Of a DNA stretch of 64,000 nt, positions 7,967-43,369 are shown piece after piece. The DNA is from a virus, in the IMG/VR virus record IMGVR_UViG_3300030109_006070, positions 8,030 through 72,029 of that record; one strand, written 5' to 3'. Positions within the stretch are counted from its first letter, which is position 1. Every line of letters begins with the position of its first letter. The notes under the pieces were generated by a model. The model worked only from the letters and a program-made list of their open reading frames with translations, made no database searches and was not told where the DNA came from. Both the position numbers and the translations under genes were made by a program.

Positions 7967-7971
7967 AAGTC

Positions 7972-10602: not shown

Positions 10603-10603
10603 T

Positions 10604-11071: not shown

Positions 11072-11115
11072 GTTGATTTTTACACTTTTATTTATATAAT
11101 AAGATAGGATTAAGG

Positions 11116-11403: not shown

Positions 11404-11414
11404 GGAAAAAGGTT

Positions 11415-12170
11415 ATGGCTTTAAAATCACTATATTCATTTACTCTCGATCAAGAAAAAGAAATCGAGAAAACTCACACTCGTAAAAACAAGAAAACGGG
11501 TGAAGAGACGACTGTAACTAAGAAAGTTAAGGAAAAAGTTCCTGTAGAGGTTTTTATAAAAAGACCCTCTAGGAGACAGTTGGAGGACGCAGAATTAGAA
11601 TATTCTGTAGAAATGAGTCGCTGTGTTAAAAGAGGAATTCTTACCAAAGCTATGCTTTATAAAAAATATAGCGATACAGGCGGTGTTTGGACAGAAGATG
11701 AAGCTAAAGATTATGGCAAGCTCTACAAAGAGACTTTCGAAATTCAGAACGAATACGTTCGCTTAGAGACTGTAGAAAACAAGTCTGAAGAACAAAAAGA
11801 AAAGCTAGAAAAACTCAAAGAAGATCTAGCTATGATTAGAAGAAAAGTTGTGGACGCGGAAACTTCGATGGAGACTCTTTTTAACCACACCGCCGACAAT
11901 AAAGCTCAAAACAGATTATTACTTTGGTATACTTTAATGCTTACTCATGTTCAAGATGAGTCCCAAGAGGAGCCAGTTCCTTATTTTGAGGGTTTAGACT
12001 TTGAAGAAAAAATGGAAGACTATTATACTAAAGAAGATGAGTCTTCTAGTTTCTATGTAGATTTAATCAAAAAAGTGACAACAGTCTTAGCTTTTTGGTT
12101 CTTTAATCAAGCTTCTTCCCCCGAAGAATTCAATAAACTCATTGAAGATGTCGAAAAAGGTGAAGTTTGA
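11415..12170 (+). CDS. Putative tail assembly chaperone
   Basis: Charged helical 251 aa, two genes upstream of the tape measure; AAGGT SD-like site. Confidence 0.5.
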   Translation: MALKSLYSFTLDQEKEIEKTHTRKNKKTGEETTVTKKVKEKVPVEVFIKRPSRRQLEDAELEYSVEMSRCVKRGILTKAMLYKKYSDTGGVWTEDEAKDYGKLYKETFEIQNEYVRLETVENKSEEQKEKLEKLKEDLAMIRRKVVDAETSMETLFNHTADNKAQNRLLLWYTLMLTHVQDESQEEPVPYFEGLDFEEKMEDYYTKEDESSSFYVDLIKKVTTVLAFWFFNQASSPEEFNKLIEDVEKGEV

Positions 12171-13144: not shown

Positions 13145-13177
13145 ATCTTTGTGTAATTACAATAAAGGTTTACGGTT

Positions 13178-19807: not shown

Positions 19808-20616
19808 TGTATGACACAACACTAAATTACGAAGCTCACTTTTTTATTTCGGGGCGAGATGGCAGTCCATCAGCAAGAGAACTTTCTGGCATAGAAAGTC
19901 TTGATATAGGCTATTCTAATAGCTCTTCTGTTTTAGCCCCTTTAGGATCAAACCGAGGGCTTACAACGGTTGCAGGAGCAACCAGTCAAACCGTTTCTTT
20001 TTCTAGATCTCTAATATATGACGATCCAATTTTAGATTTTACAGGTGAATCTGAAGTAATGAAGGGTAGTTTTAATTATGATAACAACGCTTCTTATGGT
20101 TTTCACAGTGGCTATTTAAATTCTTATTCAGTTAACTGCGCGGTTGGGTCTGTCCCGAAAGTTAATACTAACTTCACCGTTTACGATGAAATGAAAAGTG
20201 GAATAAACGCCACAGGAGCCACTCCAACTAATATATTTATACCAAGCCAAGGTTCTATAACAGCTACTTGTGACAATAGCTCCACTAATAGAGTTGTCGG
20301 CTTTGATTATTCACTCACTCTAAATAAAAAGCCATATTATAGTATAGGTGTTGAAACTCCTGTTGAGGTCAAGCATATTAACCCTATACAATATTCAGCT
20401 AGCGTTCAGATAGAAGTCGATGATATTTTTCTGCAAAGTGGTTTTGATTTTTTATCAACTAGGGAAGATAAATCTGTTTCTTTTTCTGTAAAAGGCCGAG
20501 ACGGAACAACTCTTCAAAATTTAACCATACCGAAAGCTTCACTAGTTTCAGAACAATTGACTTCTAGTTCAGATGGAGCTGTTCGTTTAACCCTTAACTA
20601 TTTAGGTCACTCATGA
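19807..20616 (+). CDS. Tail protein, tail-tube/distal-tail-like paralog
   Basis: Follows tape measure (TAATG overlap); GYLNSYSVNCAVGSVPKV resembles tail tube CYISDYTVDMAVGSLPTV. Confidence 0.6.
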   Translation: MYDTTLNYEAHFFISGRDGSPSARELSGIESLDIGYSNSSSVLAPLGSNRGLTTVAGATSQTVSFSRSLIYDDPILDFTGESEVMKGSFNYDNNASYGFHSGYLNSYSVNCAVGSVPKVNTNFTVYDEMKSGINATGATPTNIFIPSQGSITATCDNSSTNRVVGFDYSLTLNKKPYYSIGVETPVEVKHINPIQYSASVQIEVDDIFLQSGFDFLSTREDKSVSFSVKGRDGTTLQNLTIPKASLVSEQLTSSSDGAVRLTLNYLGHS

Positions 20617-29345: not shown

Positions 29346-30194
29346 ATGAAAGTATTGTTTATATCTGACTTCACATTAGAACAGAGACAAGGGGGCGCTC
29401 AAGTCAGCAACAAAATTCTTATCGACAAAGGTAAAGAATTAGGTCTCGATATAAAAGAACACGATCATAATTCTTCGATTACTGATTTTTTTTCACACTA
29501 TGATCTAGTAATCAACTCTAATCTGGAAGCTATTAGTAAAATATCTCCAGAGAAAATGCCTTTAATATTAAAACTGCCTAACTCGTTTAGATTAGAGCAT
29601 GATTCTTGCAGTTATTTACAAGATGACGTAAGGTTAGAATTATTTTCCGCAGCAAATAGAACTTTCTTTTTAAGCGATTACCATTATAGTTTTTTTAAAG
29701 ATTTATACGGAGATTATTTTCATAATGTAGAAATAGTTTACGATGCAGTAGACACTTCAAAGTTCAAAAAATCTTCTGAAGAAAAAAAACATGATGTTGT
29801 TTACTGTGGTTATTTACACCCCTTAAAAGGCTTAAATAATTTACTTAGGTTTGCTAGCCAAAACCCTGACAGGAATATAGACATATTTGGATGGGGAGAG
29901 ATTTCTCCTGATAGGGTATTTAAAGATTATCCAAATATAAAATTTAATGGACCAAGGGATTATGCTGATATTCCAGCTATTTTACAATCAGCTAAAGCTA
30001 TTTTCCACCACCCAATCGTTAGGGAACCATTTTGTAGGATGGTAGGGGAAGCTATTTTATGTGGAGTGGAAGATATTATAGGTGACAAATCAAAAATAGG
30101 AGCTTATCTTGAGTTTGAGAAAGTGGGATATGATGCTTTTAAAAATAGCTGTGAAAACGCTCCGTCTTTATTTTGGGAAAAGATATTAAAATGA
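29346..30194 (+). CDS. Glycosyltransferase GT4-like
   Basis: GGAQ, GYLHPLKG and EPFCRMVGEAILCG motifs. Confidence 0.8.
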   Translation: MKVLFISDFTLEQRQGGAQVSNKILIDKGKELGLDIKEHDHNSSITDFFSHYDLVINSNLEAISKISPEKMPLILKLPNSFRLEHDSCSYLQDDVRLELFSAANRTFFLSDYHYSFFKDLYGDYFHNVEIVYDAVDTSKFKKSSEEKKHDVVYCGYLHPLKGLNNLLRFASQNPDRNIDIFGWGEISPDRVFKDYPNIKFNGPRDYADIPAILQSAKAIFHHPIVREPFCRMVGEAILCGVEDIIGDKSKIGAYLEFEKVGYDAFKNSCENAPSLFWEKILK

Positions 30195-31036
30195 ACTTTA
30201 TTTGTGGTACTTATTTTAAACACCAATGTCGTCTACAGTTAAGTAGTTACAACGACCCCAGAACTTCTGAATTCTTTCCTAAAGAAGATCAAGATTTAGA
30301 TAATAATTTTGTTTTTTGCAAACCAGAACATCTTTCTTTGTTAGACACATATGTTAAAATAGGCTCTATTAAATTAGCTGAAAAATTTAATTTAGTTACG
30401 CATAACTCTGACACCAATTTCGGACAACAAGAAATTGATTATGTTTTAAATTTATTTCCCAATATAGATACTTGGTATACTCAAAATCTTGTAGCTGCAC
30501 ACCCAAAGGTTAAACCAATACCTATTGGGATAGCCAATCCTAAATGGTCGCACGGGAACCAAGATAGGTTTGCTAAAATACAATTAAAAAAAGTAAGTAA
30601 ATTCCAAGAGGTATATGTAAACTTTAACATCTCTACAAATCCAAGAGCTAGACAAGAGTGCTTGGCGAAGATTGGGTTTCCTTACAATTTACAATTAGAA
30701 AAAAACTACCCAGACGCTTCTTCTATAAAAGCTCACGATAATTTTGTTGAATCAACCCAAGATAGGTATTTAAGCGACATGGCAGCTTCTTATTTTACCA
30801 TGTCTCCAGTAGGTAACGGTGTAGATTGTCATAAAACATGGGAGGCCCTCTACATGAAAAGCATACCTATTGTCACCCGCTGGCACGGTGCAGAAGAATT
30901 TAAAAAATTGGGAATTCCCATTGTTATTATTGATGACTGGTCTGAATTTAAAGATGTAGACCTTTCAGCAGATAACTATAAAAAAATATGGGGAGATTTC
31001 GACCCTAAGTGTCTTAATTTTAATTTATTTAAATAA
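30191..31036 (+). CDS. Exostosin/GT47-like glycosyltransferase
   Basis: LVTHNSD, PIPIG, SPVGNGVDCHKTWEALY..IPIV motifs. Confidence 0.7.
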   Translation: MNFICGTYFKHQCRLQLSSYNDPRTSEFFPKEDQDLDNNFVFCKPEHLSLLDTYVKIGSIKLAEKFNLVTHNSDTNFGQQEIDYVLNLFPNIDTWYTQNLVAAHPKVKPIPIGIANPKWSHGNQDRFAKIQLKKVSKFQEVYVNFNISTNPRARQECLAKIGFPYNLQLEKNYPDASSIKAHDNFVESTQDRYLSDMAASYFTMSPVGNGVDCHKTWEALYMKSIPIVTRWHGAEEFKKLGIPIVIIDDWSEFKDVDLSADNYKKIWGDFDPKCLNFNLFK

Positions 31037-31770
31037 TGAAAAAAGTAACTTATATTTTAAACACTTGGCAACGCCCCCATACTTTGAACGACCAAGTAAA
31101 AGCCATATCCAAACAAACAGTAAAATGTAATGAACTTATGATTTGGCAAAATATGCCAGAAAAAAAAGAAAACTCTTTTATAATTCAAGGCGAAGAAAAT
31201 AACTTAAAAGTTTCTCATAACAATTATAATTATGGAGTTTGGGCTAGATTTGCCTTCGCTCTTAATGCTAAATCAGACTACATCTGCTTGTTAGATGATG
31301 ACACAATCCCAGGACACAAATGGTCAGAGAATTGTATTGAGTCTATAGAAAAAGAAGACGGTTTATATGGAACAGTAGGAGTAATTTTTAATGATAAAAA
31401 ATATAAAGATTTTGAAAGGCATGGCTGGCCAAATCCAAACGAAGAAAAAAAACAAGTCGACATTGTGGGACACGCTTGGTTCTTCCACAGAGACTTATTA
31501 AGCGCTTTTTGGAGAGAAGTCAGCCCCCCCGTTAACAATATTTGCGGAGAAGATGTTCATTTTTCTTATTCAATCCAAAAATACTTAGGTCTTAATACAT
31601 ATGTACCACCTCACCCAAAAGACCGTTTATCTCTATGGGGTAGCCAACCTAAATCTGCTATGCAATATGGCGTGGATAATAACGCTATTTCCGTAAACTC
31701 TGACGGGATTGAATTTGGAGAATCTTTGACCCATTATTGCGACAAAGGATTTAAATTACTAAACGTATAA
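31036..31770 (+). CDS. Glycosyltransferase GT-A fold
   Basis: LLDDD (DxD) and GEDVHFS motifs. Confidence 0.75.
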   Translation: MKKVTYILNTWQRPHTLNDQVKAISKQTVKCNELMIWQNMPEKKENSFIIQGEENNLKVSHNNYNYGVWARFAFALNAKSDYICLLDDDTIPGHKWSENCIESIEKEDGLYGTVGVIFNDKKYKDFERHGWPNPNEEKKQVDIVGHAWFFHRDLLSAFWREVSPPVNNICGEDVHFSYSIQKYLGLNTYVPPHPKDRLSLWGSQPKSAMQYGVDNNAISVNSDGIEFGESLTHYCDKGFKLLNV

Positions 31771-32756
31771 TGAAAATTTTATTGTGTTTTGGGACTAGAC
31801 CTGAATGGTTAAAAATAAAGCCACTCACTAAAGTTTTAGATAATTACCAACTTCTTTTTACTGGTCAGCACACAGATCTTTTAAAAGATGTAAAAGCCGA
31901 CTATATTATCGAACAAAGCGATATCGGCAATAGGCTAGACCAAATCGTAGTGAGTTGTCTTGGTCAATTTCCTGCTGGGGATTTTGATTCTGTTTTAGTC
32001 CAAGGTGATACCGCTTCTGCTTTTGCTTGCGCTTTAGCCGCTTTTCATAGAGGTAAAAAAGTTTATTATCTAGAGGCTGGCCTTAGAACTTATAATCTTG
32101 ATCACCCTTATCCAGAAGAAGGGTATAGACAAATGATATCGAGAATATCAGATGTTAATTTGTGTCCGACTACCCTATCCAAAGACAATCTGCTGCATGA
32201 ACTAGTAAAAGGAGAATCTCATGTGGTCGGAAACACAGTGTTGGATAATTTATTACCCTACAAAGAAAAGTGCGAATATCACAATAAGGTTCTTGTCACT
32301 TTGCACAGAAGAGAAAATCATAAACTTATTGATAGCTGGTTTAAACAGGTTAATTTGCTTGCTAAAAACAACACGGATTTAGAATTTTTGTTACCACTAC
32401 ACCCTAACCCTAATGTTAAAAAACATAAACATTTATTAACTGACGTTAATGTTTTAGAACCCTTATCTCACCCTATGCTTTTAGATATTTTAGCTAAATG
32501 TAAATTAGTTATTAGCGATAGCGGTGGGATACAAGAAGAGGGCAGCTTTTTAAACAAAAAGATTATAGTTTGTAGAGAAACAACAGAAAGGCCTGAAGGC
32601 AAAAAATCTGGGCATATCTTTATTTGTAAAAAACCCGAGAGGCTACATGGAATTTTCAATATCCTAAAATATAATTACGAAATCGAAGAAGAGTGCCCAT
32701 ACGGAGACGGTTACTCTTCTTTAAAAATACTTAAATTACTCAATGAAGGACTTTAG
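31770..32756 (+). CDS. wecB: UDP-N-acetylglucosamine 2-epimerase
   Basis: GTRPE, TGQH, VQGDT, EAGLR, TLHRRE, SDSGGIQEE, TERPE, YGDG. Confidence 0.93.
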   Translation: MKILLCFGTRPEWLKIKPLTKVLDNYQLLFTGQHTDLLKDVKADYIIEQSDIGNRLDQIVVSCLGQFPAGDFDSVLVQGDTASAFACALAAFHRGKKVYYLEAGLRTYNLDHPYPEEGYRQMISRISDVNLCPTTLSKDNLLHELVKGESHVVGNTVLDNLLPYKEKCEYHNKVLVTLHRRENHKLIDSWFKQVNLLAKNNTDLEFLLPLHPNPNVKKHKHLLTDVNVLEPLSHPMLLDILAKCKLVISDSGGIQEEGSFLNKKIIVCRETTERPEGKKSGHIFICKKPERLHGIFNILKYNYEIEEECPYGDGYSSLKILKLLNEGL

Positions 32757-33984
32757 AGAAGACATATCTAATATTTATAAAAGGCTTAAAGAAAAAAAAC
32801 CTTTTGCTTTTTCTAAATATGCAGACGGTGAGTACAAAATTCTAGTTAATGAACCAATAACTAATTGTGACAATTGGACCTTTTGCCCCGAAACGCATAA
32901 GGCAGAGCAATCTCTTCTTTTAGAGTCTTTTAAATATAAACATCCTGATTATGTGGTCGGAATAAGCTGTCCATGCTGTCAACCAGTTGAGCATGTTGAT
33001 TGGATGAAAAAAACTGCTCGGGCTAAAAATTTAACTTGGGCGAATTTATTTGTTAATAGCAACTACGATTTTTTTACTAGAGAAATTATTCCTCTTTTTT
33101 CTTCTTGGGATAAAGAAGTTTTTCTTTTTGCTAACGAAGAAGGCCTCGGCAAAGATTTGCCTTTTAATGTAAGTAAATATTTTCCCCTCAACATGAAAGC
33201 TTGGCAAGAGCCATTTCTTTCTCATTGGATAGAGATAGGAGAGAAAAGAGCGAAAAACACAGAAGGAGCACTTTTTTTATTTTCAGGAGGCCCTCTTGGA
33301 AACATTTTAAGCTATAAACTGCATCAAGCAAACCCGTTAAACACTTACATAGACATAGGCTCTACGATAAGCCCTTGGATAGTTGGGAGCAATAGAGATT
33401 ATCATCATGGAGGCGCATCTAGAAATCAAAAATGCACATGGAGCCAAAAAGCAGATTTAGATTTTTCTGTTTTTAAGGGTGGGTGGTCCTACATGGCTGA
33501 AGAGATGAATAACGCGGTTTCTTTACTCCCTAAACAAAAGTCTTTAGATGTTATGGAGTTTGGGTGCGGCGATAGTTCTATTAAGTTATTTAACTTGCTG
33601 AATAATAAATGGGATGTTCGATACGAAGCTTTTGAATCTAATTCAAATTACATTATTGATAACTCAAAAATTAACTGCACTCATTATAACGAAGCAGAAA
33701 TTGAGAGTTTAGATATTGGAAATAAAAAATACGACTTTATACTAATTGATGGCCCGAATGGAGTTTTACGCAAACATTGGTATTCTAAAATTACCAACAA
33801 TGTCAAAAGAGGCACTATTATTCTAATAGATGATTGGTGTCATTTCGAAGAATTTGAGGAGGCGCTTGTTAATGATTTTGGATCTAAAATTAAATATGAA
33901 GTTATAGAAACGAGAAAAGAATTTGACATAAATTCAGCGCCGCATTTAGGATACAAAAGTTGGAAAATAGTAAAAGTTTTATGA
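32743..33984 (+). CDS. GT-D-like domain fused to SAM methyltransferase domain
   Basis: N-part FSKYADGE..GPLG..YIDIGS (GT-D-like); C-part VMEFGCGDS, LIDGP, IDD (class I methyltransferase). Confidence 0.6.
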   Translation: MKDFREDISNIYKRLKEKKPFAFSKYADGEYKILVNEPITNCDNWTFCPETHKAEQSLLLESFKYKHPDYVVGISCPCCQPVEHVDWMKKTARAKNLTWANLFVNSNYDFFTREIIPLFSSWDKEVFLFANEEGLGKDLPFNVSKYFPLNMKAWQEPFLSHWIEIGEKRAKNTEGALFLFSGGPLGNILSYKLHQANPLNTYIDIGSTISPWIVGSNRDYHHGGASRNQKCTWSQKADLDFSVFKGGWSYMAEEMNNAVSLLPKQKSLDVMEFGCGDSSIKLFNLLNNKWDVRYEAFESNSNYIIDNSKINCTHYNEAEIESLDIGNKKYDFILIDGPNGVLRKHWYSKITNNVKRGTIILIDDWCHFEEFEEALVNDFGSKIKYEVIETRKEFDINSAPHLGYKSWKIVKVL

Positions 33985-34667
33985 TTACGAATACGGTTTA
34001 CTCCCACAGTTCTTATTTTGATGTCTTAGAAATTTTCTTGGATCGGTGGAATTTATTTTATGGTGAAGATATAACTGTCTTCGCAGATAAAAAGTATAAA
34101 GACTACGACACTATTATCTATGATGATAAGTTAAGCTATACAGAAAGATTGATACAGTGTCTAGAAAACACAGACTGCGATATATTGCTCTATCAACACG
34201 AAGATATGTTTTTGTATAAGGAGCCTAATTCTAAAAAACTAAAAGATTATGAAAAAATATTAACTGATAGCAACAATTCTTTTATTAGACTAACTAAAGC
34301 TGGAGCTTGTAATTTTTCGAAAAGCCATTTATGCGAAACCTTATTAAATATTTCTAAAGATTCAAAAAATTTTTTTGCTGTTCAATCGGCACTTTGGAAA
34401 AAAGTTGATTTAATTAAATTTTTAAAAGAAGCGGGGTCTTTAAGCATATGGGATCTTGAGTGGACATCTCCTCAAATAAATACAAAAGCATCTTTGTTTG
34501 GTTTGTCTCATTTCGATAATGAGCCTCCAAGGGGAGGGCACTTTGACTCAAACGTATGGCCTTATATTGCCACAGCTATAAATAAAGGAAAATGGAATTT
34601 TGGAGAATATGAAAAAGAGTTTTCTGAAATAGATAAAGTTTTAATCAACAAAAGGCCAAGATATTAA
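33981..34667 (+). CDS. Putative glycosyltransferase
   Basis: QHEDMF, QSALWKK, SIWDLE, AINKGKW pattern of polysaccharide-locus GT-A-like proteins. Confidence 0.55.
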   Translation: MITNTVYSHSSYFDVLEIFLDRWNLFYGEDITVFADKKYKDYDTIIYDDKLSYTERLIQCLENTDCDILLYQHEDMFLYKEPNSKKLKDYEKILTDSNNSFIRLTKAGACNFSKSHLCETLLNISKDSKNFFAVQSALWKKVDLIKFLKEAGSLSIWDLEWTSPQINTKASLFGLSHFDNEPPRGGHFDSNVWPYIATAINKGKWNFGEYEKEFSEIDKVLINKRPRY

Positions 34668-34668
34668 G

Positions 34669-35265
34669 ATGGAAGAGTGGTGTATTGTTGTTCAGGGTCC
34701 ATCTGATTCTGTGTCAGAAATAAAAAGGTCAACCGAAGGTTATAAAACCATATTTTCTACATGGGTGGGTGACGAGCCTAAGTATTCTAAAGACGACGAT
34801 GTAATTTTTAATGAAAAACCCAAGGAGGTAGGAATCGGGAATTTGTATTATCAGCAGACATCGACAATGAACGGTTTGCTAAAAGCGCAAAAGTTAGGTT
34901 TTAAAAATGTTTTTAAAACAAGAAGTGATTTTATACCTACGAACATAAATGAACTTATTAAGGGCTTTACCCATAAATTAAATTTATTCTTTTGGCACAA
35001 TTATACTGGCGGTTATATTTGTGATTATTTTATGGCTGGAGAAACAGACTTAATGATAAAGTTGTGGAAAAAAAAGAGTGATGAAGGTTATAACTTCGCA
35101 GAACGCATGATAACCGAAAATTTCTTTGAAATGGGATTAAAAGAAGAAGACTTCGAATTTTATTTAAACAAACTCAATGAAAAAAATGACATTTTCTGGA
35201 CAAAATACGATAAATTTCTATCATCCTATAAGTCAGACGAGCTAGCTCTTGATTTTATAAAATGA
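34669..35265 (+). CDS. WavE-like polysaccharide biosynthesis protein
   Basis: IVVQGP, STW, N..YQ..ST.NGL, KTRSD, DYFMAG motifs. Confidence 0.7.
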   Translation: MEEWCIVVQGPSDSVSEIKRSTEGYKTIFSTWVGDEPKYSKDDDVIFNEKPKEVGIGNLYYQQTSTMNGLLKAQKLGFKNVFKTRSDFIPTNINELIKGFTHKLNLFFWHNYTGGYICDYFMAGETDLMIKLWKKKSDEGYNFAERMITENFFEMGLKEEDFEFYLNKLNEKNDIFWTKYDKFLSSYKSDELALDFIK

Positions 35266-35990
35266 ACAATAATTACAACAAAGACGCATTTTCTTCAAAT
35301 TCGGAAAGAAGATATAGCAACTGGGAAGGAACAGTGTTAAGCTATACTTTTGATTTTGTTAAAAAAATTGAGAACAAAATAGATCTAGAAAAAGTCAACC
35401 ATGTTTTAGATATTGGCTCCAGAGACGCTTGTCAAAGCTTAGAGCTATCTGACTGGTTCCCGAATTCTACGGTTCATTGTTTTGAACCAGTTCCAGAAAC
35501 TGCTGCTTGGTGTAAAAACAATATTAAAGATAGAAAAAATATTCTTTTTTATGAAAAAGCAATTGGTTCTATTGACGGCAGCGTTAAGTTCCACAAAGTG
35601 GTCAATGGAAATATAGGAGCCAGCTCTCTATATCGCACTAATAACGAGCATCACCATGCGCGAACTTGGGCACAAGAAGAAATTGAAGTTGAGTGTATTA
35701 GGGGAGATTCCTTTATAAAAGAAAACGCAATAAACCAAATTGATTTAATATGGATGGATGTACAAGGAGCGGAAATAGAAGTCTTAAACAGTTTTGGGAG
35801 CGACTTAGAAAACATTAAAGCTATTCATTCTGAAGTCGGATTGGGGAAAATATATGAAAAGTCGACTGTAAAAAATGAATTAATAAACTTTATGGAAGAC
35901 AAAGGGTTTGTAGTCGAATGTTGCCTGTCGAATGCTTTAGGGATTGAAGAAGATATTGTCTTTGTAAATAAAAAATTTATTTTAAAATGA
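35262..35990 (+). CDS. FkbM-family methyltransferase
   Basis: LDIGS, FEP, GASS, WMDVQGAE. Confidence 0.9.
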   Translation: MNNNYNKDAFSSNSERRYSNWEGTVLSYTFDFVKKIENKIDLEKVNHVLDIGSRDACQSLELSDWFPNSTVHCFEPVPETAAWCKNNIKDRKNILFYEKAIGSIDGSVKFHKVVNGNIGASSLYRTNNEHHHARTWAQEEIEVECIRGDSFIKENAINQIDLIWMDVQGAEIEVLNSFGSDLENIKAIHSEVGLGKIYEKSTVKNELINFMEDKGFVVECCLSNALGIEEDIVFVNKKFILK

Positions 35991-36745
35991 AAATTGCTTT
36001 TTGTATATCAGGGTTATTTAAACCCAGCACCACACATTCCGCAGCGTATGAAAATAAATTTGCATATTTAACTGAAAAGATAAAAGAATACAAGGCTGAT
36101 ACCTTTATATATTCTTTCTCTAAAGAAATCGAATCTGAAGTTGTTAACATCTTTGAACCAAAAGATTTTAAGTTCGAAGTACAGAAAGAATTTGAAGATA
36201 AAGTAGCCAATATAAATAGCATATTAGACAAAGGCACCGCGAAAAGAGTCTTTAGTATGTTTTATTCCAGAAAAAAGGTTTGCGAATTAAGAAAAAAGTT
36301 TGAAAAAGAAAATAAAACAAACTACGATGTGGTTGTTTTGTGCAGACCAGATTTAGGTTATGTATCTACCGAAAATTTTAAAATTCCAAATTTACATGAA
36401 ATAGACGCTGATTATCTATATTCGATGTATTGGAATCAATTCAACGCAGGAATGCCAGATTGGTTTTTCATTTCTAACCCTCAAAATATTGATTTTTTGT
36501 CGAGAATTTATGACAAGCTCCCATTATATTTAAAACATAACAGTGACTATAAAAAATCTATCACTAGTGGATTTCCATACAGCAATTCAGAAAACAGATT
36601 TTCTCAAGAAATATTCAATAAATCTCCTCGGCATTCTGAAAAAATAGACGAAATATACATGTTAAACCAGCATGTTTTGTTGAAATATTATTTATTAGAG
36701 AATGATAAATTTTCTTTAGACTTTTTAAAATTCTCTGACCATTGA
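35987..36745 (+). CDS. Putative glycosyltransferase (MKIAxCxSG family)
   Basis: MKIAFCISG, SMFYS, YDVVVLCRPD, DWFF motifs. Confidence 0.55.
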   Translation: MKIAFCISGLFKPSTTHSAAYENKFAYLTEKIKEYKADTFIYSFSKEIESEVVNIFEPKDFKFEVQKEFEDKVANINSILDKGTAKRVFSMFYSRKKVCELRKKFEKENKTNYDVVVLCRPDLGYVSTENFKIPNLHEIDADYLYSMYWNQFNAGMPDWFFISNPQNIDFLSRIYDKLPLYLKHNSDYKKSITSGFPYSNSENRFSQEIFNKSPRHSEKIDEIYMLNQHVLLKYYLLENDKFSLDFLKFSDH

Positions 36746-36746
36746 C

Positions 36747-37460
36747 ATGGATGACAAAATAACATTAAAAAACATTGAGCTATCTAAAGTGTCTCAAGAT
36801 TTATACGATGCCTTCAATAGCTTTATCTTGAGTGATGATACAAGACTATTCAATAAGCTTGTTTCAAGAGCCTTGTTATATAATGAAGTTAAGGATATCC
36901 CAGGAGATATAGTGGAATGCGGTGTTTTTAAAGGGACGGGCATGTATACATTTTTAAAACTAAAAAATATATTCAACCCTAATTCATCAAAAAAAGTTTT
37001 AGGATTTGATTTCTTTAATACTAAAGAATTAATGGACTCTATTTCTGACGAAACAGACAAAAATACAATGGATGTTTTATTCTCTGAAAGAGCCTTCGAA
37101 CACAAAGTTTCATTTAAAGAAAATCTCGCTAATCAAATACGCAATCATAAATTTACAGACTCTGACTTTATGTTAGTAGAAGGAGATATTTCTTCAACTA
37201 CAAAAGAATTTTCAGAAAAAAATCCTGGGTTTAAGATATCTCTCTTATACATGGATGTTGATTTAGAGACCCCCACTTATAATGCCTTGAATAACCTTTG
37301 GGACAATATGACAAAAGGAGGATTAATTGTTTTTGATGAATACGGCTATCATAAATGGAGTGAGTCAAAAGGTGTTGATAAGTTTATTAAAGAAAAAAAT
37401 TTAGACATAAAGTCTTTAAATTGTTTGTGTCCGACAGCTTATATAAAAAAACATGATTGA
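36747..37460 (+). CDS. TylF/MycF-family O-methyltransferase
   Basis: PGDIVECGVFKG, GFDFF, MDVDL, VFDEY, GVD. Confidence 0.88.
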   Translation: MDDKITLKNIELSKVSQDLYDAFNSFILSDDTRLFNKLVSRALLYNEVKDIPGDIVECGVFKGTGMYTFLKLKNIFNPNSSKKVLGFDFFNTKELMDSISDETDKNTMDVLFSERAFEHKVSFKENLANQIRNHKFTDSDFMLVEGDISSTTKEFSEKNPGFKISLLYMDVDLETPTYNALNNLWDNMTKGGLIVFDEYGYHKWSESKGVDKFIKEKNLDIKSLNCLCPTAYIKKHD

Positions 37461-38811
37461 TTTTGTTATATTTGATTTAGATGGAGTGTTGGTAGAGACC
37501 AAACACATTCATTTTGATGCTTTAAATAAAGCTCTGGCCGAAATTGATCCAAAATTTTGCATAAGCAAATCAGACCATTTGAATATCTTCGACGGTTTAA
37601 AAACCCGAGATAAGTTAAACATTTTAAGCGACTCTTTTGGCTTGCCACCACACACTCACGATAATATATGGCAAACCAAACAAAAAATTACTTCTGAAAA
37701 ATTTTCCACTATCAAACCTGATTTAAAATTAATTGAGGCTTTTAATTGGTTGCGCTCTCGTAATATAAAGATGGCGTGTTGCTCGAACGCCATCCGAAAA
37801 TCTGTTTACGGAATGCTTTGTCGCGCTGGCTTAATTGAATTCTTTGATTATATCTTATCCAATGAAGATGTAGAAAATTCAAAACCTCACCCTCAAATGT
37901 ATTGGGAGGCTATGTCGGCTTTTAAGGCCAACCCAGAAAATACATTAATTATTGAAGATTCTCCTAATGGCCTGTTAGCCGCTCAACGTAGTGGCGCTAA
38001 TGTCTGGAGAGTAAAAAGCCCACAAGAAATAACAATAAAAACTTTAACATCGCAGTTAAGCGGTAACAAAAAACTTATGACTACTCGTTGGCAAGATTCA
38101 AATTTAAACGTCTTAATCCCTATGGCGGGTGCGGGTAGCAGGTTCCAAGCCGCAGGATATACCTTCCCGAAGCCATTAATAGAAGTCAGAGGTCAGCCGA
38201 TGATTCAAACAGTTGTGGAAAACCTTAATTGTGAAAGCCCTCATACTTTTATTGTCCAAAAATCTCATCGTAACAAATATAATTTAGACACTCTTCTAAA
38301 TTTAATTTCTCCCGATTGCCATATTATAGAAGCAGACGGGATAACCGAAGGAGCGGCTTGCACTACACTGTTAAGTAAAGATGTCATCAATAACGATCAA
38401 CCTCTTTTGATCGCTAATTCAGATCAATACGTAGATTGGGATGCTAGCGAATTTTTGTATAAAATGCAGGAACAAGATGCTGACGCTGGAATCCTTACCT
38501 TTAAATCAACCCACCCCAAATGGTCTTTTGCTAAAGTTGACGATAACGGTAGCGTCACTGAAGTAGCGGAGAAAAATCCTATCTCTGATATAGCTACAGT
38601 TGGCATCTATTACTGGAAAAAAGGTTCTGATTATGTAAAATATACAGAGCAAATGATAGAAAAAAACATAAGACATAACAATGAGTTCTATGTATGCCCT
38701 GTTTTTAATGAGGCTATTAAAGACGGTAAAGTAGTTAAAACCTTTAATATAGAAAAGATGTGGGGTTTAGGAACCCCCGAAGATTTAGATTTTTTCTTAA
38801 AAAGCAATTAA
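37453..38811 (+). CDS. HAD phosphatase fused to sugar-phosphate nucleotidyltransferase
   Basis: FDLDGVL, KPHP, IEDS (HAD); LIPMAGAGSRF..PKPLI, NSDQ, EKNP, GTPEDL (NTP transferase). Confidence 0.9.
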   Translation: MIDFVIFDLDGVLVETKHIHFDALNKALAEIDPKFCISKSDHLNIFDGLKTRDKLNILSDSFGLPPHTHDNIWQTKQKITSEKFSTIKPDLKLIEAFNWLRSRNIKMACCSNAIRKSVYGMLCRAGLIEFFDYILSNEDVENSKPHPQMYWEAMSAFKANPENTLIIEDSPNGLLAAQRSGANVWRVKSPQEITIKTLTSQLSGNKKLMTTRWQDSNLNVLIPMAGAGSRFQAAGYTFPKPLIEVRGQPMIQTVVENLNCESPHTFIVQKSHRNKYNLDTLLNLISPDCHIIEADGITEGAACTTLLSKDVINNDQPLLIANSDQYVDWDASEFLYKMQEQDADAGILTFKSTHPKWSFAKVDDNGSVTEVAEKNPISDIATVGIYYWKKGSDYVKYTEQMIEKNIRHNNEFYVCPVFNEAIKDGKVVKTFNIEKMWGLGTPEDLDFFLKSN

Positions 38812-38815
38812 ATTT

Positions 38816-39532
38816 ATGACATTCTTAATTCCTTGCGCTGGTTTAGGCGCTAGATTCCATTCTAAAATCCCCAAGCCTCTTATTGAGGTTCTAGATGGTC
38901 GCCCGATGCTTGAGCTTGTATTAGAAAACTTAAGACAGCGAGAGGATGATCGGTTTATCTGCTGTATTCTCAAAGAACATGATTTAAAATTTAATCTTTC
39001 TCAAGAAATTAAAAAGTTTGCTCCTTATGTAGACATTTGCGTTGTAGAAAAACTAAAAGATGGCCCAGCTTCTACTTGTTATGAGGCGAAAGATCTAGTA
39101 GATCAGGACGATGAATTAATCATTATAAACTGCGATCAAATTATCGAAGATTTTAATATCGAGGCGTTTTTAAGATTTGCTCATTCACACGATTATGACG
39201 GCGTTTTAGGAACATTCTTTTCTCGCTCTCCTAAAAACAGTTATGTTAAATTAAACGATGACGGCCTTGTCGTCGAAGCTCAAGAGAAAAAAGTATTGAG
39301 CGAATACGCGACAAATGGGCTACATTATTGGAAGAAAACTTCCTATTTCTTTGATTCTTATCGTGTTATGGTCGAAAAAAACGCTCGCACTTTAAATGAA
39401 TTTTATGTAGCTCCTTCATATAATTATTTAATTAATGATGGAAAAAGAATTGGAGCTTATCACTTTAACGAGCATTATCCAATTGGAATACCAAGTGATT
39501 TAAATTATTATAAAAACTTTAAAACAAAATGA
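38816..39532 (+). CDS. Second sugar-phosphate nucleotidyltransferase
   Basis: LIPCAGLGARF..PKPLI, NCDQ, NEFYVAP, GIPSDL; paralog of the preceding C-domain. Confidence 0.85.
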   Translation: MTFLIPCAGLGARFHSKIPKPLIEVLDGRPMLELVLENLRQREDDRFICCILKEHDLKFNLSQEIKKFAPYVDICVVEKLKDGPASTCYEAKDLVDQDDELIIINCDQIIEDFNIEAFLRFAHSHDYDGVLGTFFSRSPKNSYVKLNDDGLVVEAQEKKVLSEYATNGLHYWKKTSYFFDSYRVMVEKNARTLNEFYVAPSYNYLINDGKRIGAYHFNEHYPIGIPSDLNYYKNFKTK

Positions 39533-40731
39533 AAAGCTTATTTAGAGACAAAGTGGACGAAAACAAATATTACATCGCCACCTATCACCTTAAGTCCTCT
39601 CCTTCTTCGACTTTACGCGAAGCTGCATTTAATTTGGCAGTAGGCCAATCGATTGGAAACCCTGCGAAACGAGCAGAAATGGAAACGGAAGAAATGTTTG
39701 AAAATCATGCTTGTATTGTTTTAGCTGATGAATCCGAACTAGAAAAGAAAGTGGAAGGTGATGTTTCTATTGCATTCCCTGAAGCAAATATTGATTTTGC
39801 CACAGACGGTATTTCTCAATTACTTGTGCAAACAATGGGGGGGCAGATGGATATTGACGTAATCGAAAAATGTAGGATGCTTGATATTAAATTTACACCT
39901 ACTATGCTATCGTGCCTTAAGGGTCCAATTATTGGACTTAAAGAAATTAAAGAGCACTGCAAAATTCCTGATGATCAGGTAATTTTAGGAGGAATTACTA
40001 AGCCTAAAATTGGTCTTACTCCTGAATTACATTTAGAGCTAGTGAAAAGACTTGTCGATGGAGGTTGTAACTTTATTAAAGAAGATGAAATCTTATCGGG
40101 AGCTGCTCACTGCCCACTAGAAAAAAGAGTTGAGCTAGTATCTAACTATTTAGCGAATTGCGGATCTCCTGTATTTTATTGTGTTTCCATCCATTCAGAC
40201 CCCGCTTATTTGCTTAAGCGTGTCCAACAAGTATATGACTTAGGAGGTAACGGAATTCATGTAAATTTTCATTGCGGCCTCGGAGCTTATAAATCGATAA
40301 GGGAGACTGAATTACCTCTTTTGATGCATTACCAAAAAAGCGGAGATAGAGTATTAAACCATCATTCTCATCGCTACAGCATTGAACCCTCTTTGATGTT
40401 TAAGCTTGTTTCGTTATCTGGCTGCGGAACCCTTCACGCAGGTATGATTGGAGGCTATCTTGAAAGCGGAGATGAAGAAGTTAAAAATATAATGTCAATT
40501 CTTAACTCTCAAAATTCAGTTCCAGCTTTGAGCTGTGGTATGCACCCAGGTTTAGTTAAACATATCCAAAAAACTGTAGGCCATGCTAACTGGATGGCCA
40601 ATGTTGGAGGAGCAATAACTTCGCACCCTATGGGGACTGCCGCAGGAGCAAGAGCAATGAAACAAGCAATAACAGAAGATTACGGCAAAGAGTTTGGTGT
40701 CGCAGCCACGAAATGGGGAATTGAAATGTGA
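39529..40731 (+). CDS. RuBisCO-like protein (form IV)
   Basis: KPKIGL, FIKEDE, HAG, SCGMH and GGAITSHPMGTAAGARA motifs; carboxylase residues substituted. Confidence 0.9.
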   Translation: MKSLFRDKVDENKYYIATYHLKSSPSSTLREAAFNLAVGQSIGNPAKRAEMETEEMFENHACIVLADESELEKKVEGDVSIAFPEANIDFATDGISQLLVQTMGGQMDIDVIEKCRMLDIKFTPTMLSCLKGPIIGLKEIKEHCKIPDDQVILGGITKPKIGLTPELHLELVKRLVDGGCNFIKEDEILSGAAHCPLEKRVELVSNYLANCGSPVFYCVSIHSDPAYLLKRVQQVYDLGGNGIHVNFHCGLGAYKSIRETELPLLMHYQKSGDRVLNHHSHRYSIEPSLMFKLVSLSGCGTLHAGMIGGYLESGDEEVKNIMSILNSQNSVPALSCGMHPGLVKHIQKTVGHANWMANVGGAITSHPMGTAAGARAMKQAITEDYGKEFGVAATKWGIEM

Positions 40732-40744
40732 GGTTAATATAATT

Positions 40745-41068
40745 ATGAAACTTTTAGATATAGAAGAAATGAAAGGGGGCTGGTTTGTCGGAGACTTTGA
40801 TCCCAGCGCTTATAAAACAAAAGATTTTGAGGTAGGATATAAATTCCACAAAAAGGGCGAGCCTTGGGATAAGCACTATCATGAAAAATGCACTGAAATT
40901 AATTTTTTGATGAAAGGGGTGATGAAGATGCGCGGTCAAATCTTAAAGAGTGGCCAAATATTCATCATGGAACCTTTTGAGGTAGCTGATCCCGAGTTCA
41001 TCGAAGATTGTCATGTAGTTGTTGTCAAAACTAATAGTGAAAAAGGAGACAAAATTTGTGTCGAATGA
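40745..41068 (+). CDS. Cupin-fold protein
   Basis: GGWFVGDF, HYHE..E..KG cupin motif; likely start ATG 40745. Confidence 0.75.
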   Translation: MKLLDIEEMKGGWFVGDFDPSAYKTKDFEVGYKFHKKGEPWDKHYHEKCTEINFLMKGVMKMRGQILKSGQIFIMEPFEVADPEFIEDCHVVVVKTNSEKGDKICVE

Positions 41069-41481
41069 TTGTAATATCACACAGAGGAAACTTATCTGGC
41101 AAAGACCCAGACAACGAAAATAGGCCCGAACAAATTTATAAAGTTTTAAATTTGGGTTACCACTGTGAAGTAGATATTTGGAAAAAAGACGGAGCTTTCT
41201 ACTTGGGCCATGATGAACCCATGTATGAAATAGACTCAAATTTATTGAGCAATAAAAATTTGTGGATTCACGCTAAAAATCTAGAAGCTTTGCACTCTTT
41301 GCCGACAAGCTTAAGATATTTTTGGCATCAAACAGACGACTACACTTTAACATCTGATAATTTTATTTGGACTTTCCCCGACAAAGAAATTTGCGAAAGG
41401 TCAATCATTGTTGATAATAACAAAAACTGGAAAGATAAAAACTATAAATGTTTAGGTGTTTGCACTGATTGGGTTTTATGA
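41065..41481 (+). CDS. Short GDPD/PLC-like phosphodiesterase
   Basis: ISHRGN, EN, EVDIW, LGHD, HAKN, GVCTD. Confidence 0.75.
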   Translation: MIVISHRGNLSGKDPDNENRPEQIYKVLNLGYHCEVDIWKKDGAFYLGHDEPMYEIDSNLLSNKNLWIHAKNLEALHSLPTSLRYFWHQTDDYTLTSDNFIWTFPDKEICERSIIVDNNKNWKDKNYKCLGVCTDWVL

Positions 41482-42323
41482 AAAAAATTGTTGTTACGGG
41501 AGGAGCGGGATTTGTTGGCTCTCATTTATGTAAAAAATTGGTGGATTTAGGTCATCATGTTACATCAATTGATAATTATTCGACAGGATCTTTTAACAAT
41601 CATGTAACAGGAGCTTTTTATTTTAACCGAGATATTTCTAATATGAAGGAAATTTCGGGACTCTTTGAGAATGTAGATGTTGTTTTTCATTTGGCTGCTC
41701 TTGCTCGTATACAGCCCTCTTTTCATTTTCCCTCTGAATACTTTCAGTCAAACGTGCAGGGGACTTTTAATTTATGTGAAATTTGCAAAAAAAATAATAT
41801 TTCCATAATTTTTTCAGGTTCTTCCTCCCACCATAGCGGTAAGTTTAAAAATCCTTATACGTTCATGAAAGACGTTTCCGAGGAAATGCTGATTTTGTAT
41901 CATAAAATATATGGCCTAAATCAATCTATCGCTAGATTTTATAATGTTTATGGCCCGAATCACATAGAAGTCGGTGAATATTCTACAGTTATAGCTAGAT
42001 GGGATAAAGCTCATAGAGAAAAAAAATCAATTACTATTTATGGGGACGGGAGCAAGGAAAGAGATTTTACTCATGTCGAAGATATTGTAGAAGGATTAAT
42101 TAAAATATGGCAAACTCAAAGCTATGGGCACACTTTTGAATTAGGCAGAGGTAGAAAATTTTCTTTAAAGGAAGTTGCGGAGATGTATAGACCTTCTTTT
42201 GGAATTGTATATGAACCAGACAAAAAAGGAGAAGCGCAAAGCGTTCTGTGCGATAGCTCTTTAGCGAAGCAAATCTTGAACTGGGAACCTAGATTTAATT
42301 TAGAAGATTGGATTTTAAAATGA
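41478..42323 (+). CDS. NAD-dependent sugar epimerase/dehydratase
   Basis: TGGAGFVG, HLAA, PYTFMK (YxxxK), YNVYGP, RDFTHV. Confidence 0.9.
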   Translation: MKKIVVTGGAGFVGSHLCKKLVDLGHHVTSIDNYSTGSFNNHVTGAFYFNRDISNMKEISGLFENVDVVFHLAALARIQPSFHFPSEYFQSNVQGTFNLCEICKKNNISIIFSGSSSHHSGKFKNPYTFMKDVSEEMLILYHKIYGLNQSIARFYNVYGPNHIEVGEYSTVIARWDKAHREKKSITIYGDGSKERDFTHVEDIVEGLIKIWQTQSYGHTFELGRGRKFSLKEVAEMYRPSFGIVYEPDKKGEAQSVLCDSSLAKQILNWEPRFNLEDWILK

Positions 42324-43369
42324 AAAAAATTATTATTACAGGAGTAACGGGTCAAGATGGTAGCCTTATGGCAGACTATCTTTTAAAAAACACAAAACAC
42401 ACAATTATTGGTGGAGCTAGGAGGCTTAGTGTTAAAAATCACAAAAATATCAAACATCTGGAAGACAATGAAAGATTTTTTCTTATAGACCTCGATGTAA
42501 CAGACCCTCAAAATACAGACAGGGTTTTGGCTGAACATAAGCCTGATTATTTTATTAATTTTGCGGCCAACTCTTTTGTAGGTAGCAGTTGGGAAATGCC
42601 GACTCAACACATGCAAACAAATGCGATGGCTGTATTGCATCAGCTAGAGGCCATTCGTAGACACGCTCCGAAGTGCCGATATTACAACGCTGGTAGCTCT
42701 GAAGAGTTTGGTGATGTTGTAGAGTCTCCACAGACAGAATCTCATCCACTGCGCCCTAGAAGCCCATATGGAGCCTCTAAATGCGCCGCTAGACATTTAG
42801 TTAAAGTCTATAGAGATTCTTACAATATTTACGCTGTACAAGGCTTTTTATTTAATCATGAAGGAGTCAGAAGGGGGGAAGAGTTCGTTACTCGTAAAAT
42901 TACTAAAAATGTAGCTAGAATTCTCGTAGAGTATGAAACAGGACAAGTTACAAAACCACTAGAATTGGGTAATCTTGACTCCAAAAGAGATTGGAGCGAT
43001 GCAGAAGATTTCGTAAGAGGTATATGGCTGATGCTCAATCAAAACAGAGAAAACGCAAAAGATTATGTTTTATCTTCTAATGAAACGCATACAATTAGAG
43101 AATTTGTAGAAGAAGCTTTCAACTTTGCTGGTTTTCATAGGAGCATCTGTCGATGGGACGGTGAAGGTTTAGAAGAAAAATACTTTCATGGTCGTGACCT
43201 TCTTGTAGAAATTAATAAAGACTTTTACAGACCAGCGGAAGTTGATTTATTGTGGGGAGACTCTAAAAAAGCTCGCGAAGAGCTTGGTTGGGAACCTAAA
43301 ACCTCTTTTGTCCAATTGATCAAAAAAATGATTGACGTAGATGTGGCGGCGGTTTACCCTTACCCGTGA
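42320..43369 (+). CDS. gmd: GDP-mannose 4,6-dehydratase
   Basis: TGVTGQDGS, SSEEFG, PRSPYGASK, FNHE, FVTRKIT, RDW, RPAEVD. Confidence 0.95.
   Translation: MKKIIITGVTGQDGSLMADYLLKNTKHTIIGGARRLSVKNHKNIKHLEDNERFFLIDLDVTDPQNTDRVLAEHKPDYFINFAANSFVGSSWEMPTQHMQTNAMAVLHQLEAIRRHAPKCRYYNAGSSEEFGDVVESPQTESHPLRPRSPYGASKCAARHLVKVYRDSYNIYAVQGFLFNHEGVRRGEEFVTRKITKNVARILVEYETGQVTKPLELGNLDSKRDWSDAEDFVRGIWLMLNQNRENAKDYVLSSNETHTIREFVEEAFNFAGFHRSICRWDGEGLEEKYFHGRDLLVEINKDFYRPAEVDLLWGDSKKAREELGWEPKTSFVQLIKKMIDVDVAAVYPYP

Follow-up and report, generated by a model that had tools for sequence, protein, structure and literature searches.

A phage RuBisCO-like protein coupled to sugar nucleotidyltransferases probably makes an unusual sugar phosphate for surface glycosylation

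What does a RuBisCO-like protein (RLP) do in the glycan cluster of a phage? The question is raised by a 64,000-nucleotide stretch of viral DNA (IMG/VR record IMGVR_UViG_3300030109_006070, positions 8,030 to 72,029; hereafter the window). Its RLP gene lies among genes for two nucleotidyltransferases (NTs; NT1, fused to a HAD domain, and NT2), a small cupin and a miniature glycerophosphodiester phosphodiesterase (mini-GDPD). Besides fixing CO2, members of the RuBisCO superfamily are known to carry out a small number of catabolic or salvage reactions. An earlier note on this DNA had proposed that the RLP stands at the core of a five-gene pathway to a nucleotide-activated sugar. We confirmed the observation, and its interpretation was supported in part. 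The RLP probably supplies a surface glycan with an unusual sugar phosphate, because it lacks the residues for carboxylation, is coupled to sugar-activation genes and has an ordinary isomerase as its counterpart in a related phage.

All five open reading frames (ORFs) were found on the + strand within a glycan cluster, and domains or folds support each of them. The start codons overlap as ATGA at 39529, 41065 and 41478, tying the cassette genes together and to the SDR gene that follows. At 37453 the cassette overlaps the preceding gene by 8 nt, and 4 nt (38812-38815) separate NT1 from NT2. The translational coupling of the five cassette genes is real.

The RLP belongs to the RuBisCO large-subunit superfamily (PF00016, 106.1 bits, cut-off 30.1; PF02788, 25.7 bits, cut-off 20.7). 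It scored below the NCBIfam cut-offs for forms I-III (TIGR03326 for form III, 153.6 versus 497; NF003252 for RbcL, 140.4 versus 438; NF010002, 101.2 versus 489), for MtnW (NF007095, 122.5 versus 409; TIGR03332, 92.6 versus 513.6) and for the OiaX equivalog (113.2 versus 700). Solved RuBisCO structures were about equidistant from it, with 9dyp, 8dht and 3nwr as the best matches (E about 1e-24 to 1e-25). Residues were mapped through HMMER alignments to solved RuBisCOs, in what we take to be spinach numbering. The RLP keeps K175 and K177 (as K158 and K160), K201, D203 and E204 (as K184, D186 and E187) and H327 (as H303). S379 and G381 (S335 and G337) and G403 and G404 (G360 and G361) are also kept, and the P1 phosphate loops are intact. 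Substitutions were found at N123 (Q106), H294 (Q269), R295 (K270), H298 (D273), K334 (Y310) and G380 (C336). The KPK and KEDE motifs and the changes at N123, H294, R295 and K334 had been read by eye in the earlier note and were reproduced by the alignments; its E60 to Q change was off by one at most, since E60 aligns to G39 and Q40 adjoins it.

Across 20 relatives with 52-89% identity, K158, K160, K184, D186, E187, H267 and H303 were invariant. Q106, Q269, K270, D273, Y310 and C336 were invariant or nearly so, recurring through the RLP clade as one signature that is common to no other known form. The RLP keeps the Lys-carbamate/Mg centre. Because N123, H294, R295 and K334 are replaced and no NCBIfam cut-off was reached, the RLP is, as judged from its sequence, non-carboxylating and cannot fix CO2, which agrees with the earlier reading.

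In a quick tree of 133 rows, which includes an overlapping ORF taken in error from a GC-rich contig (L111_RLP, branch length 3.7), the window family fell in a 52-row clade with an SH-aLRT support of 100. A careful tree excluding L111_RLP was built from 68 rows, namely 30 of the family and 38 others chosen among the 133 to cover each outgroup clade; the outgroup clades were labelled by NCBIfam scores, and the tree was read without inferring a root. A branch with 100/99 support split the 30 family rows from the 38 others. On its far side were a sequence passing the RbcL model NF003252 (P0162), one passing the MtnW model NF007095 (P0240) and the OiaX-like P0204. The window RLP thus lies in a clade of its own, grouping neither with methionine-salvage enzymes nor with forms I-III. 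As the earlier note had said, no methionine-salvage genes are nearby: none (MtnA, MtnB, MtnK, MtnX or MtnD) was found among the 30 ORFs scanned at 25689-60672.

This clade is most likely the one named form IV-like in 2019, because a sequence from a Beckwithbacteria metagenome-assembled genome (MAG), L087, falls within the 100/99 clade of the window RLP. According to the main text of that report, about 80 non-redundant RLP-related sequences lay on putative phage, two Beckwithbacteria sequences grouped with the phage RLPs, and the function was left unclear (Jaffe, Castelle, Dupont and Banfield, Mol Biol Evol 2019; PMC6389311). As described there, the form IV-like proteins resemble the window RLP in being phage-borne and divergent, in keeping few key residues and in lying outside other RLPs. 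The family studied here is likewise phage-borne (72 viral loci), contains L087 and stands apart from other RLPs. The earlier note had presented the role as new; phage RLPs of this kind have been in print since 2019 (PMC6389311). The words nucleotidyl, cupin, glycos, polysaccharide and phosphodiesterase do not occur in the main text of PMC6389311.

To which genes is this RLP linked? A pattern scan for the RLP gave 72 viral loci, contigs of giant-virus MAGs included, and searching with alignment A1 yielded a further 42, all of them cellular. Many of the cellular carriers are Pelagibacterales; others are Saccharibacteria, Patescibacteria, Beckwithbacteria, Verrucomicrobia and Elusimicrobia, and the archaeal carriers are Woese-, Nano-, Pace- and Micrarchaeota. 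Cultured carriers include Nonomuraea rosea JCM 17326 (L110), Azospirillum oleiclasticum RWY-5-1-1 (L111) and a Pelagibacter isolate. Partners were counted within 4 kb of the RLP (tblastn, E 1e-4); three short or cut RLP contigs could not be judged. An NT was present near the RLP in 70/72 viral and 38/42 cellular loci, a cupin in 52/72 and 14/42, and a mini-GDPD in 52/72 and 22/42. A HAD of the beta-phosphoglucomutase (beta-PGM) type was found in 3/72 viral and 0/42 cellular loci, and a TylF-like methyltransferase stood beside the RLP in 6/72 viral loci. When the RLP loci were dereplicated at 90% RLP identity and counted with hidden Markov model profiles, the mini-GDPD occurred within 4 kb in 61 of 86 groups and the cupin in 48; near the RLP were also SDR genes (27 groups), FkbM (13) and TylF-like genes (6).

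The gene order is shuffled between RLP loci. An RLP-NT fusion (P0126, 667 aa) and NT-cupin fusions (L027, L040, L022) were also found. The glycan context extends to the cultured carriers, with a GT2 glycosyltransferase (GT) adjoining the Nonomuraea cassette and a GT41 adjoining that of Azospirillum. These results bear out the linkage of the NT with the RLP in phage, giant-virus, bacterial and archaeal glycan loci; the HAD is rare in them, and the five genes of the window do not hold together as a unit.

The linkage was also viewed from the partners. Profiles of the cupin and the mini-GDPD found 454 and at least 589 relatives in IMG/VR, and the best 80 of each were analysed. The 80 cupin-seeded loci contained NT in 78, mini-GDPD in 57, cupin in 80, DUF7796 in 45, HAD in 26 and RLP in 47; in the 80 mini-GDPD-seeded loci the counts were NT 75, mini-GDPD 80, cupin 19, DUF7796 55, HAD 45 and RLP 7. 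Among loci of at least 11 kb, which have full flanks, the RLP was present in 32/55 cupin-seeded and 6/43 mini-GDPD-seeded ones. FkbM occurred in 26 of the 160 cupin- or GDPD-seeded loci. With an RLP in so few of the mini-GDPD-seeded loci, the wider module evidently does not require one. NT plus mini-GDPD, often joined by DUF7796, is the widespread unit, and the RLP is an optional front end of it rather than its core, contrary to the earlier note.

All seeds together gave 274 loci, which were reduced to 194 groups, 137 of them with a locus of at least 11 kb. The NT accompanied the RLP in 87/88 RLP-bearing groups of this pooled, dereplicated set. Among the 137 groups, RLP and the beta-PGM-type HAD occurred together in 7, RLP alone in 81, HAD alone in 29 and neither in 20, an anticorrelation with a Fisher odds ratio of 0.06 and a p of 1e-10 that pools three seed types with relatedness uncontrolled. 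All six parts of the window were present together in 3/137 groups.

What replaces the RLP where it is absent? L198 and L197 come from close relatives of the window phage. L198 shares with the window DnaB at 94% identity, primase at 87%, the GDP-mannose 4,6-dehydratase-like (GMD-like) enzyme at 88%, ORFs o135 and o115 at 90% and 86%, and the mini-GDPD at 60%. In L198, the slot of NT2, RLP and cupin is occupied by a single 382-aa protein (4856-6004), whose NT domain precedes an isomerase domain of the RpiB/LacAB type (PF02502, E 6.7e-34). In L197 an NT-RpiB fusion of 391 aa (4516-5691, E 1.6e-31) is followed by a cupin. Such fusions were found in 12/274 loci, with an RLP in 0 of the 12; we know of no described enzyme with this architecture. 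Other RLP-less loci (L122, L142, L148) have an NT with a C-terminal HAD of the acid-phosphatase/PNKP type.

RpiB/LacAB isomerases work through an enediol or enediolate on a sugar phosphate. Their fold is unrelated to that of the RLP, and the likeness is a functional analogy by gene replacement, not homology. Judged by domain matches, the variable front end of the module appears always to act on sugar phosphates, and that of the nearest relative is predicted to be an aldose-ketose isomerase. The RpiB isomerase in the same slot therefore supports the RLP as a ketose- or aldose-phosphate enzyme upstream of nucleotide activation. On this point the earlier proposal gained support.

The NTs themselves resemble sugar-1-phosphate NTs (rmlA_long, 55 bits; Arch_glmU, 50 bits; HddC structures, E about 1e-6). 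In the NT1 fusion, HAD_2 covers residues 5-185 (E 2e-32, 113.2 bits) and NTP_transferase residues 224-444 (E 4.9e-14). NT1 and NT2 are members of the NTP_transferase family (PF00483, 52.9 and 50.9 bits, cut-off 21.2) and reach no NCBIfam equivalog cut-off, so that neither sugar nor nucleotide can be assigned by NCBIfam. The best PDB matches were 4evw for the NT1 part (E 2.3e-21) and TM_1254 and beta-PGMs for the HAD part. The HAD has a DLDG motif in its translation and scored below the beta-PGM cut-offs (TIGR02009, 90.9 versus 153.35; TIGR01990, 70.5 versus 189.4). Its sequence suggests a beta-PGM relative, with no specificity assigned.

A FastTree tree of 131 dereplicated NT domains placed NT1 in a clade of 23 rows (support 97), made up of HAD-fused NTs and of cupin-less, RLP-adjacent NTs of the SAR11 type. 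NT2 fell in a clade of 19 rows (support 96), 14 of which are cupin- and RLP-adjacent NTs, and is 59% identical to the NT of locus L002. Because NT1 and NT2 are in separate clades, the window combines two subtypes of the module. Two NT subtypes beside one RLP were seen in the window (37453-39532) and in several SAR11 loci, L094 (7240-9966) among them, with NTs on both sides of the RLP in the SAR11 loci.

The cupin and the mini-GDPD were assigned by motif and fold. The motif G(X)5HXH(X)4E(X)6G was read in the cupin translation; H44 and E51 are invariant and H46 at least 90% conserved in 30 sequences (alignment A3, built, like alignment A2 of the mini-GDPD, from relatives in fetched loci). No Pfam model matched the cupin over threshold, including the phosphomannose isomerase (PMI) models, and Cupin_7 gave 15.9 bits against a cut-off of 27. 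The predicted model (pLDDT 96.3) had its best fold match in Thermococcus phosphomannose isomerase 7zvm (E 1.5e-5, TM 0.69/0.71, rmsd 1.9, 25% identity), with KdgF and several dioxygenases ranking below; the profile also matches quercetin and acetylacetone dioxygenases. No acireductone dioxygenase was among the 50 fold matches listed. These results point to a metal-binding, PMI-like cupin, with isomerase activity predicted. NT and cupin are also combined in type II PMI-GMP enzymes of the AlgA and ManC type, a layout mirrored by the NT-cupin fusions among the relatives of the cassette. In contrast to AlgA and ManC, the NT and cupin of the window are separate genes, and the cupin has just 107 aa and no Pfam PMI match.

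In the mini-GDPD, H6, R7, E18, N19, E35, D37 and H49 are invariant among 33 sequences (alignment A2). The family profile matches GDPD 7e0v over the N-terminal 55 residues with the catalytic motifs (E 4.8e-5). The top Foldseek matches of the predicted model (pLDDT 97.7) were all GDPDs (probability 0.99-1.00, TMq 0.5-0.6), with chains about twice as long; 1v8e matched with E 1e-3 and probability 1.00. The protein shares the N-terminal HRG, EN, ExD and HD motifs with 7e0v and 1v8e but has 138 aa against about 220-255, and in the model the strands are present and most barrel helices missing. It has no Pfam match, GDPD included, at E up to 5, and is not a full (beta/alpha)8 barrel of about 220-250 aa. 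Its nearest Atlas clusters are unnamed viral proteins. By its catalytic motifs and predicted fold, it is best described as a miniature GDPD.

DUF7796 is a fifth recurrent partner of the cassette, present in 36/86 RLP groups and 55/80 GDPD-seeded loci. The window copy (35987-36745) has no Pfam match itself; 11 of the 23 aligned relatives match PF25072 (best E 1.3e-9). G9, D114, R120, D122 and D158 are invariant in the family, no PDB sequence matched at E up to 1, and a mini-GDPD-DUF7796 fusion was found at L012:8206-9276. We regard DUF7796 as a candidate transferase.

How would these parts work together? In the best explanation, to which we give about an even chance, enediolate chemistry allows the RLP to turn a sugar phosphate into an isomer or epimer, which then feeds nucleotide activation. 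What we propose here covers all of the chemistry, the choice of nucleotide, the glycan that is targeted and the part played by the mini-phosphodiesterase. The RLP would be active, Mg-dependent and non-carboxylating, and would enolise a sugar phosphate, with the phosphate of a pentulose or hexulose as the likeliest substrate. Its Mg-carbamate centre would take the proton adjoining the ketose-phosphate carbonyl and put it back elsewhere, giving an epimer or a positional isomer. The characterised isomerase-type RLP likewise moves a proton. The cupin, where present, would interconvert ketose and aldose, and the HAD, as a mutase or phosphatase, would shift or remove the phosphate. The NT would then join the RLP product, directly or after the cupin and HAD, to a nucleotide, yielding an activated unusual sugar or sugar/alditol phosphate. 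The SDR, the GMD-like enzyme and the methyltransferases would modify the activated unit, which DUF7796 or neighbouring GTs would place on the surface glycan; the mini-GDPD may make or trim a phosphodiester-linked unit. Dephosphorylation and transfer by neighbouring GTs, both present in the earlier note, are kept here as candidate steps. RLP, RpiB-type isomerase and HAD would thus be interchangeable front ends of a module of NT, mini-phosphodiesterase and DUF7796. For the clade as a whole, a biosynthetic sugar-phosphate isomerase or epimerase that is interchangeable with an RpiB-type isomerase and feeds a dedicated NT is proposed tentatively, at slightly less than an even chance.

The NT step could take either of two forms. 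Action on an anomeric phosphate would give a nucleoside diphosphate (NDP) sugar and is supported by the similarity to RmlA-, GlmU- and HddC-type enzymes. Action on a terminal phosphate would, by analogy, resemble the CDP-ribitol, CDP-arabinitol and CDP-6-glucitol routes. More speculatively, the mutase-less NT-RpiB fusion, the frequent SDRs, the GDPD-type enzyme and the RXYLT1-like GT of the cluster would fit a phosphodiester-linked pentitol or pentose phosphate.

Other chemistries have to be weighed against isomerisation. RLP, HAD or other phosphoesterase and metal cupin parallel MtnW, MtnX and MtnD of methionine salvage, and in Bacillus the pathway partners of MtnW are a HAD and a cupin. By the same logic, the RLP could be a diketone enolase, the HAD or mini-GDPD could free an aci-reductone, and the cupin dioxygenase could give a keto or shortened acid that is then activated. 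The cupin keeps the H-x-H...E metal site and its profile reaches the two dioxygenases named above, and the RLP obtains 122.5 bits from the MtnW model, sharing with MtnW/YkrW (2,3-diketo-5-methylthiopentyl-1-phosphate enolase) the fold, the Lys-carbamate/Mg centre and the P1 phosphate loops. However, both MtnW scores lie far under their cut-offs (122.5 versus 409, 92.6 versus 513.6), the RLP stands outside the clade of the MtnW-passing sequence, and the ORFs scanned around it include no methionine-salvage genes. The best fold of the cupin is an isomerase, with no acireductone dioxygenase among the 50 listed matches; the cupin is absent from 38/86 RLP groups and the HAD from nearly all, and the slot in sibling phages is filled by an RpiB isomerase, not by a dioxygenase route. 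We consider this logic very unlikely. Carbon-carbon chemistry is also unlikely: here the enediolate would attack or lose a C1 or C2 unit to give a branched or shortened sugar phosphate, or the RLP would act on an NDP-ketose. RLPs of apiose pathways decarboxylate or transcarboxylate, as the name of the NCBIfam OiaX model implies, and Carter et al. are said to have described such enzymes in 2018. The invariant Q106, Q269, K270, D273, Y310 and C336, unique to the family, count in its favour, and RLP-NT fusions would also suit an NDP-linked substrate. Yet the OiaX model gives 113 bits against 700, the plain RpiB replacement favours simple isomerisation, and the neighbourhoods surveyed contain no conserved enzyme that forms a C1 donor.

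The cassette could also consist of two unrelated sets, in which cupin, HAD, NT, GMD-like enzyme and SDR lead by an ordinary route from GDP-mannose to a GDP-6-deoxyhexose, and the RLP is a salvage or stress enzyme that takes no part in the glycan, or an inactive passenger. The PMI-like cupin, the beta-PGM-like HAD, the GMD-like enzyme and SDR directly downstream, and the module without RLP in most relatives would all agree with this. The linkage data do not: an NT accompanies the RLP in 87/88 groups across viruses, bacteria and archaea in shuffled order and in RLP-NT fusions, the RLP gene is joined to NT2 by ATGA coupling, and just 13/72 viral and 6/42 cellular loci have a GMD-like gene in the 4 kb around the RLP. 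Invariant catalytic residues also misfit an inactive passenger, and we hold two unrelated sets to be quite unlikely. A choline-phosphate route (GDPD with a LicC-like NT), a CDP-glycerol route and a recycling of nucleoside monophosphates like that of the AMP pathway were dropped, since each leaves the RLP/RpiB front end unexplained; no DeoA or E2b2 gene was seen.

Several points weigh against isomerisation by the RLP as a step of this module. The main gap is the mini-GDPD, which has no necessary step in the scheme and yet is commoner than the cupin (61 versus 48 of 86 groups). The RLP is absent from 33/80 cupin-seeded and 73/80 mini-GDPD-seeded loci, so that the module works without it; the two counts cover the 80 top-ranking relatives, out of 454 for the cupin and at least 589 for the mini-GDPD. 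The HAD/RLP anticorrelation pools samples from three kinds of seed with relatedness uncontrolled and is an indication, not a frequency. No conserved kinase or canonical phosphomutase was found in the cassette across the RLP-, cupin- and GDPD-seeded neighbourhoods, and the RpiB swap may yield a different product instead of replacing the function of the RLP. The chemistry of the clade is read from sequence and gene context. Finally, one RLP stands clearly alone, the only such case where both flanks are complete: for that of MAG contig CAZXLK010000001.1 (L077, 7986-9176), 50% identical to the RLP of the window, tblastn (E 1e-4) found neither NT nor cupin nor mini-GDPD in the 8 kb to each side. 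In L105, a close relative of L077, an NT and a cupin are present.

In the library searched, no paper joins rubisco-like, nucleotidyltransferase and cupin, and "RuBisCO-like protein" is absent from the titles and abstracts of the papers listed for RLP, phage and polysaccharide. The term is also missing from a further set of listed papers, one of them on CDP-6-glucitol. "Form IV-like" with rubisco returned only the 2019 report and one Arctic preprint; titles and abstract openings returned for SAR11 with rubisco-like had nothing on the cassette. The reverse linkage test, the division of the NTs into two subtypes, the recognition of DUF7796 as the fifth partner and the RpiB swap in a sibling phage are new. 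The swap turns a vague sugar chemistry into a specific, testable claim, and together with the fixed NT linkage it offers a concrete and cheap assay design. The RLP clade is large and widespread in phages, giant-virus contigs, SAR11, candidate phyla radiation (CPR) bacteria and DPANN archaea, and has been without a function since the 2019 report; the module of NT, mini-GDPD and DUF7796 is common in viral contigs (at least 589 phosphodiesterase relatives) and uncharacterised. If the proposal is true, the RuBisCO superfamily would for the first time have an anabolic role, in the building of glycans, and surfaces of SAR11, CPR, DPANN and the hosts of many phages and giant viruses would bear an undescribed activated sugar or sugar-phosphate unit. 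The linkage and the swap also point to an undescribed component of surface glycans in microbes that are among the most abundant in the sea, and in the viruses of these microbes.

The features of the cluster are collected in Table 1. The IMG/VR record is 72 kb long and about 65% complete, and the window is part of it. The window contains genes for a 2209-aa tape measure, two ribonucleotide reductase (RNR) subunits, DnaB, primase, a family-A-like DNA polymerase and a Lon-like protease; given the tape measure, RNR, DnaB, primase and polymerase, a tailed phage is a sound reading of the sequence. The + strand glycan cluster (29346-43369) has the RNR genes on one side and a RecA-like gene on the other. 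Domain scans assigned no family to the three ORFs between the UDP-GlcNAc 2-epimerase and FkbM genes. The GMD-like enzyme gave 323.8 bits with TIGR01472, under the cut-off of 415.

Table 1. Genes of the glycan cluster and its RLP cassette, in window coordinates
Feature	Position	Strand	Basis
GT1-like	29346-30194	+	Pfam Glycos_transf_1, E 2.9e-7
RXYLT1_C/GT47-like	30173-31036	+	Pfam RXYLT1_C (PF24785), E 4.9e-8
GT2	31036-31770	+	Pfam Glycos_transf_2, E 1.3e-7
UDP-GlcNAc 2-epimerase	31770-32756	+	Pfam Epimerase_2, E 9.4e-62
FkbM-family methyltransferase	35262-35990	+	Methyltransf_21, E 1.9e-19; TIGR01444, E 3.8e-24
DUF7796-family protein, 252 aa	35987-36745	+	relatives match PF25072
TylF-like O-methyltransferase	36747-37460	+	TylF, E 6.1e-13; Methyltransf_24, E 1.6e-6
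HAD (beta-PGM-like) fused to NT1, 452 aa	37453-38811	+	Pfam
Nucleotidyltransferase NT2, 238 aa	38816-39532	+	Pfam NTP_transferase, E 2.1e-13
RLP, 400 aa	39529-40731	+	RuBisCO_large, E 2.7e-30; RuBisCO_large_N, E 1.4e-5
Metal-binding monocupin, 107 aa	40745-41068	+	ATG 40745 as most likely start; motif and fold
Mini-GDPD, 138 aa	41065-41481	+	ATG 41065; motifs, profile and fold
SDR epimerase/reductase	41478-42323	+	Pfam Epimerase, E 5.6e-44; ATGA overlap with cassette
GMD-like	42308-43369	+	GDP_Man_Dehyd, E 2.6e-105

PHROGs gave no family for the large ORFs at 539, 3160, 5360 and 7972, and no useful one for that at 57638. In a phage collection, from which records of this genome or close to it may be excluded, neither tblastn with the RLP nor megablast with window positions 1-20000 gave a match. 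The Lon-like ATP-dependent protease (816 aa, 52987-55437; phrog_4871, E 1.7e-207) comes immediately after the DNA polymerase gene. RXYLT1 is the animal ribitol-phosphate xylosyltransferase, and the GT at 30173-31036 resembles its C-terminal domain; this could hint at a ribitol-phosphate-type acceptor or reflect a mere shared GT47-like fold.

Further observations concern other loci. In Nonomuraea rosea JCM 17326 the cassette at L110:5072-12896 (mini-GDPD, RLP, cupin, NT) is flanked by a phage-type integrase on one side and by a GT2, an AdoHcyase-NAD-like dehydrogenase and a dNK-like kinase on the other, and resembles a mobile island in a cultured actinomycete. The RLP-less L208:5324-8432 has in a row an HpcH/HpaI aldolase, a mini-GDPD, a HAD-NT fusion and a CTP_transf_3 cytidylyltransferase of the CMP-sugar synthetase type, and then two DUF7796 genes. 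Outside the window clade, the 583-aa P0172 (29% identity) carries a TIR domain (PF13676, E 3.3e-13) N-terminal to a RuBisCO-like protein. In P0165 (726 aa) and P0177 (742 aa), an IF-2B-family domain, like ribose-1,5-bisphosphate isomerase, is fused to a RuBisCO large subunit, which brings together, in a single protein, two steps of the AMP pathway of archaea.

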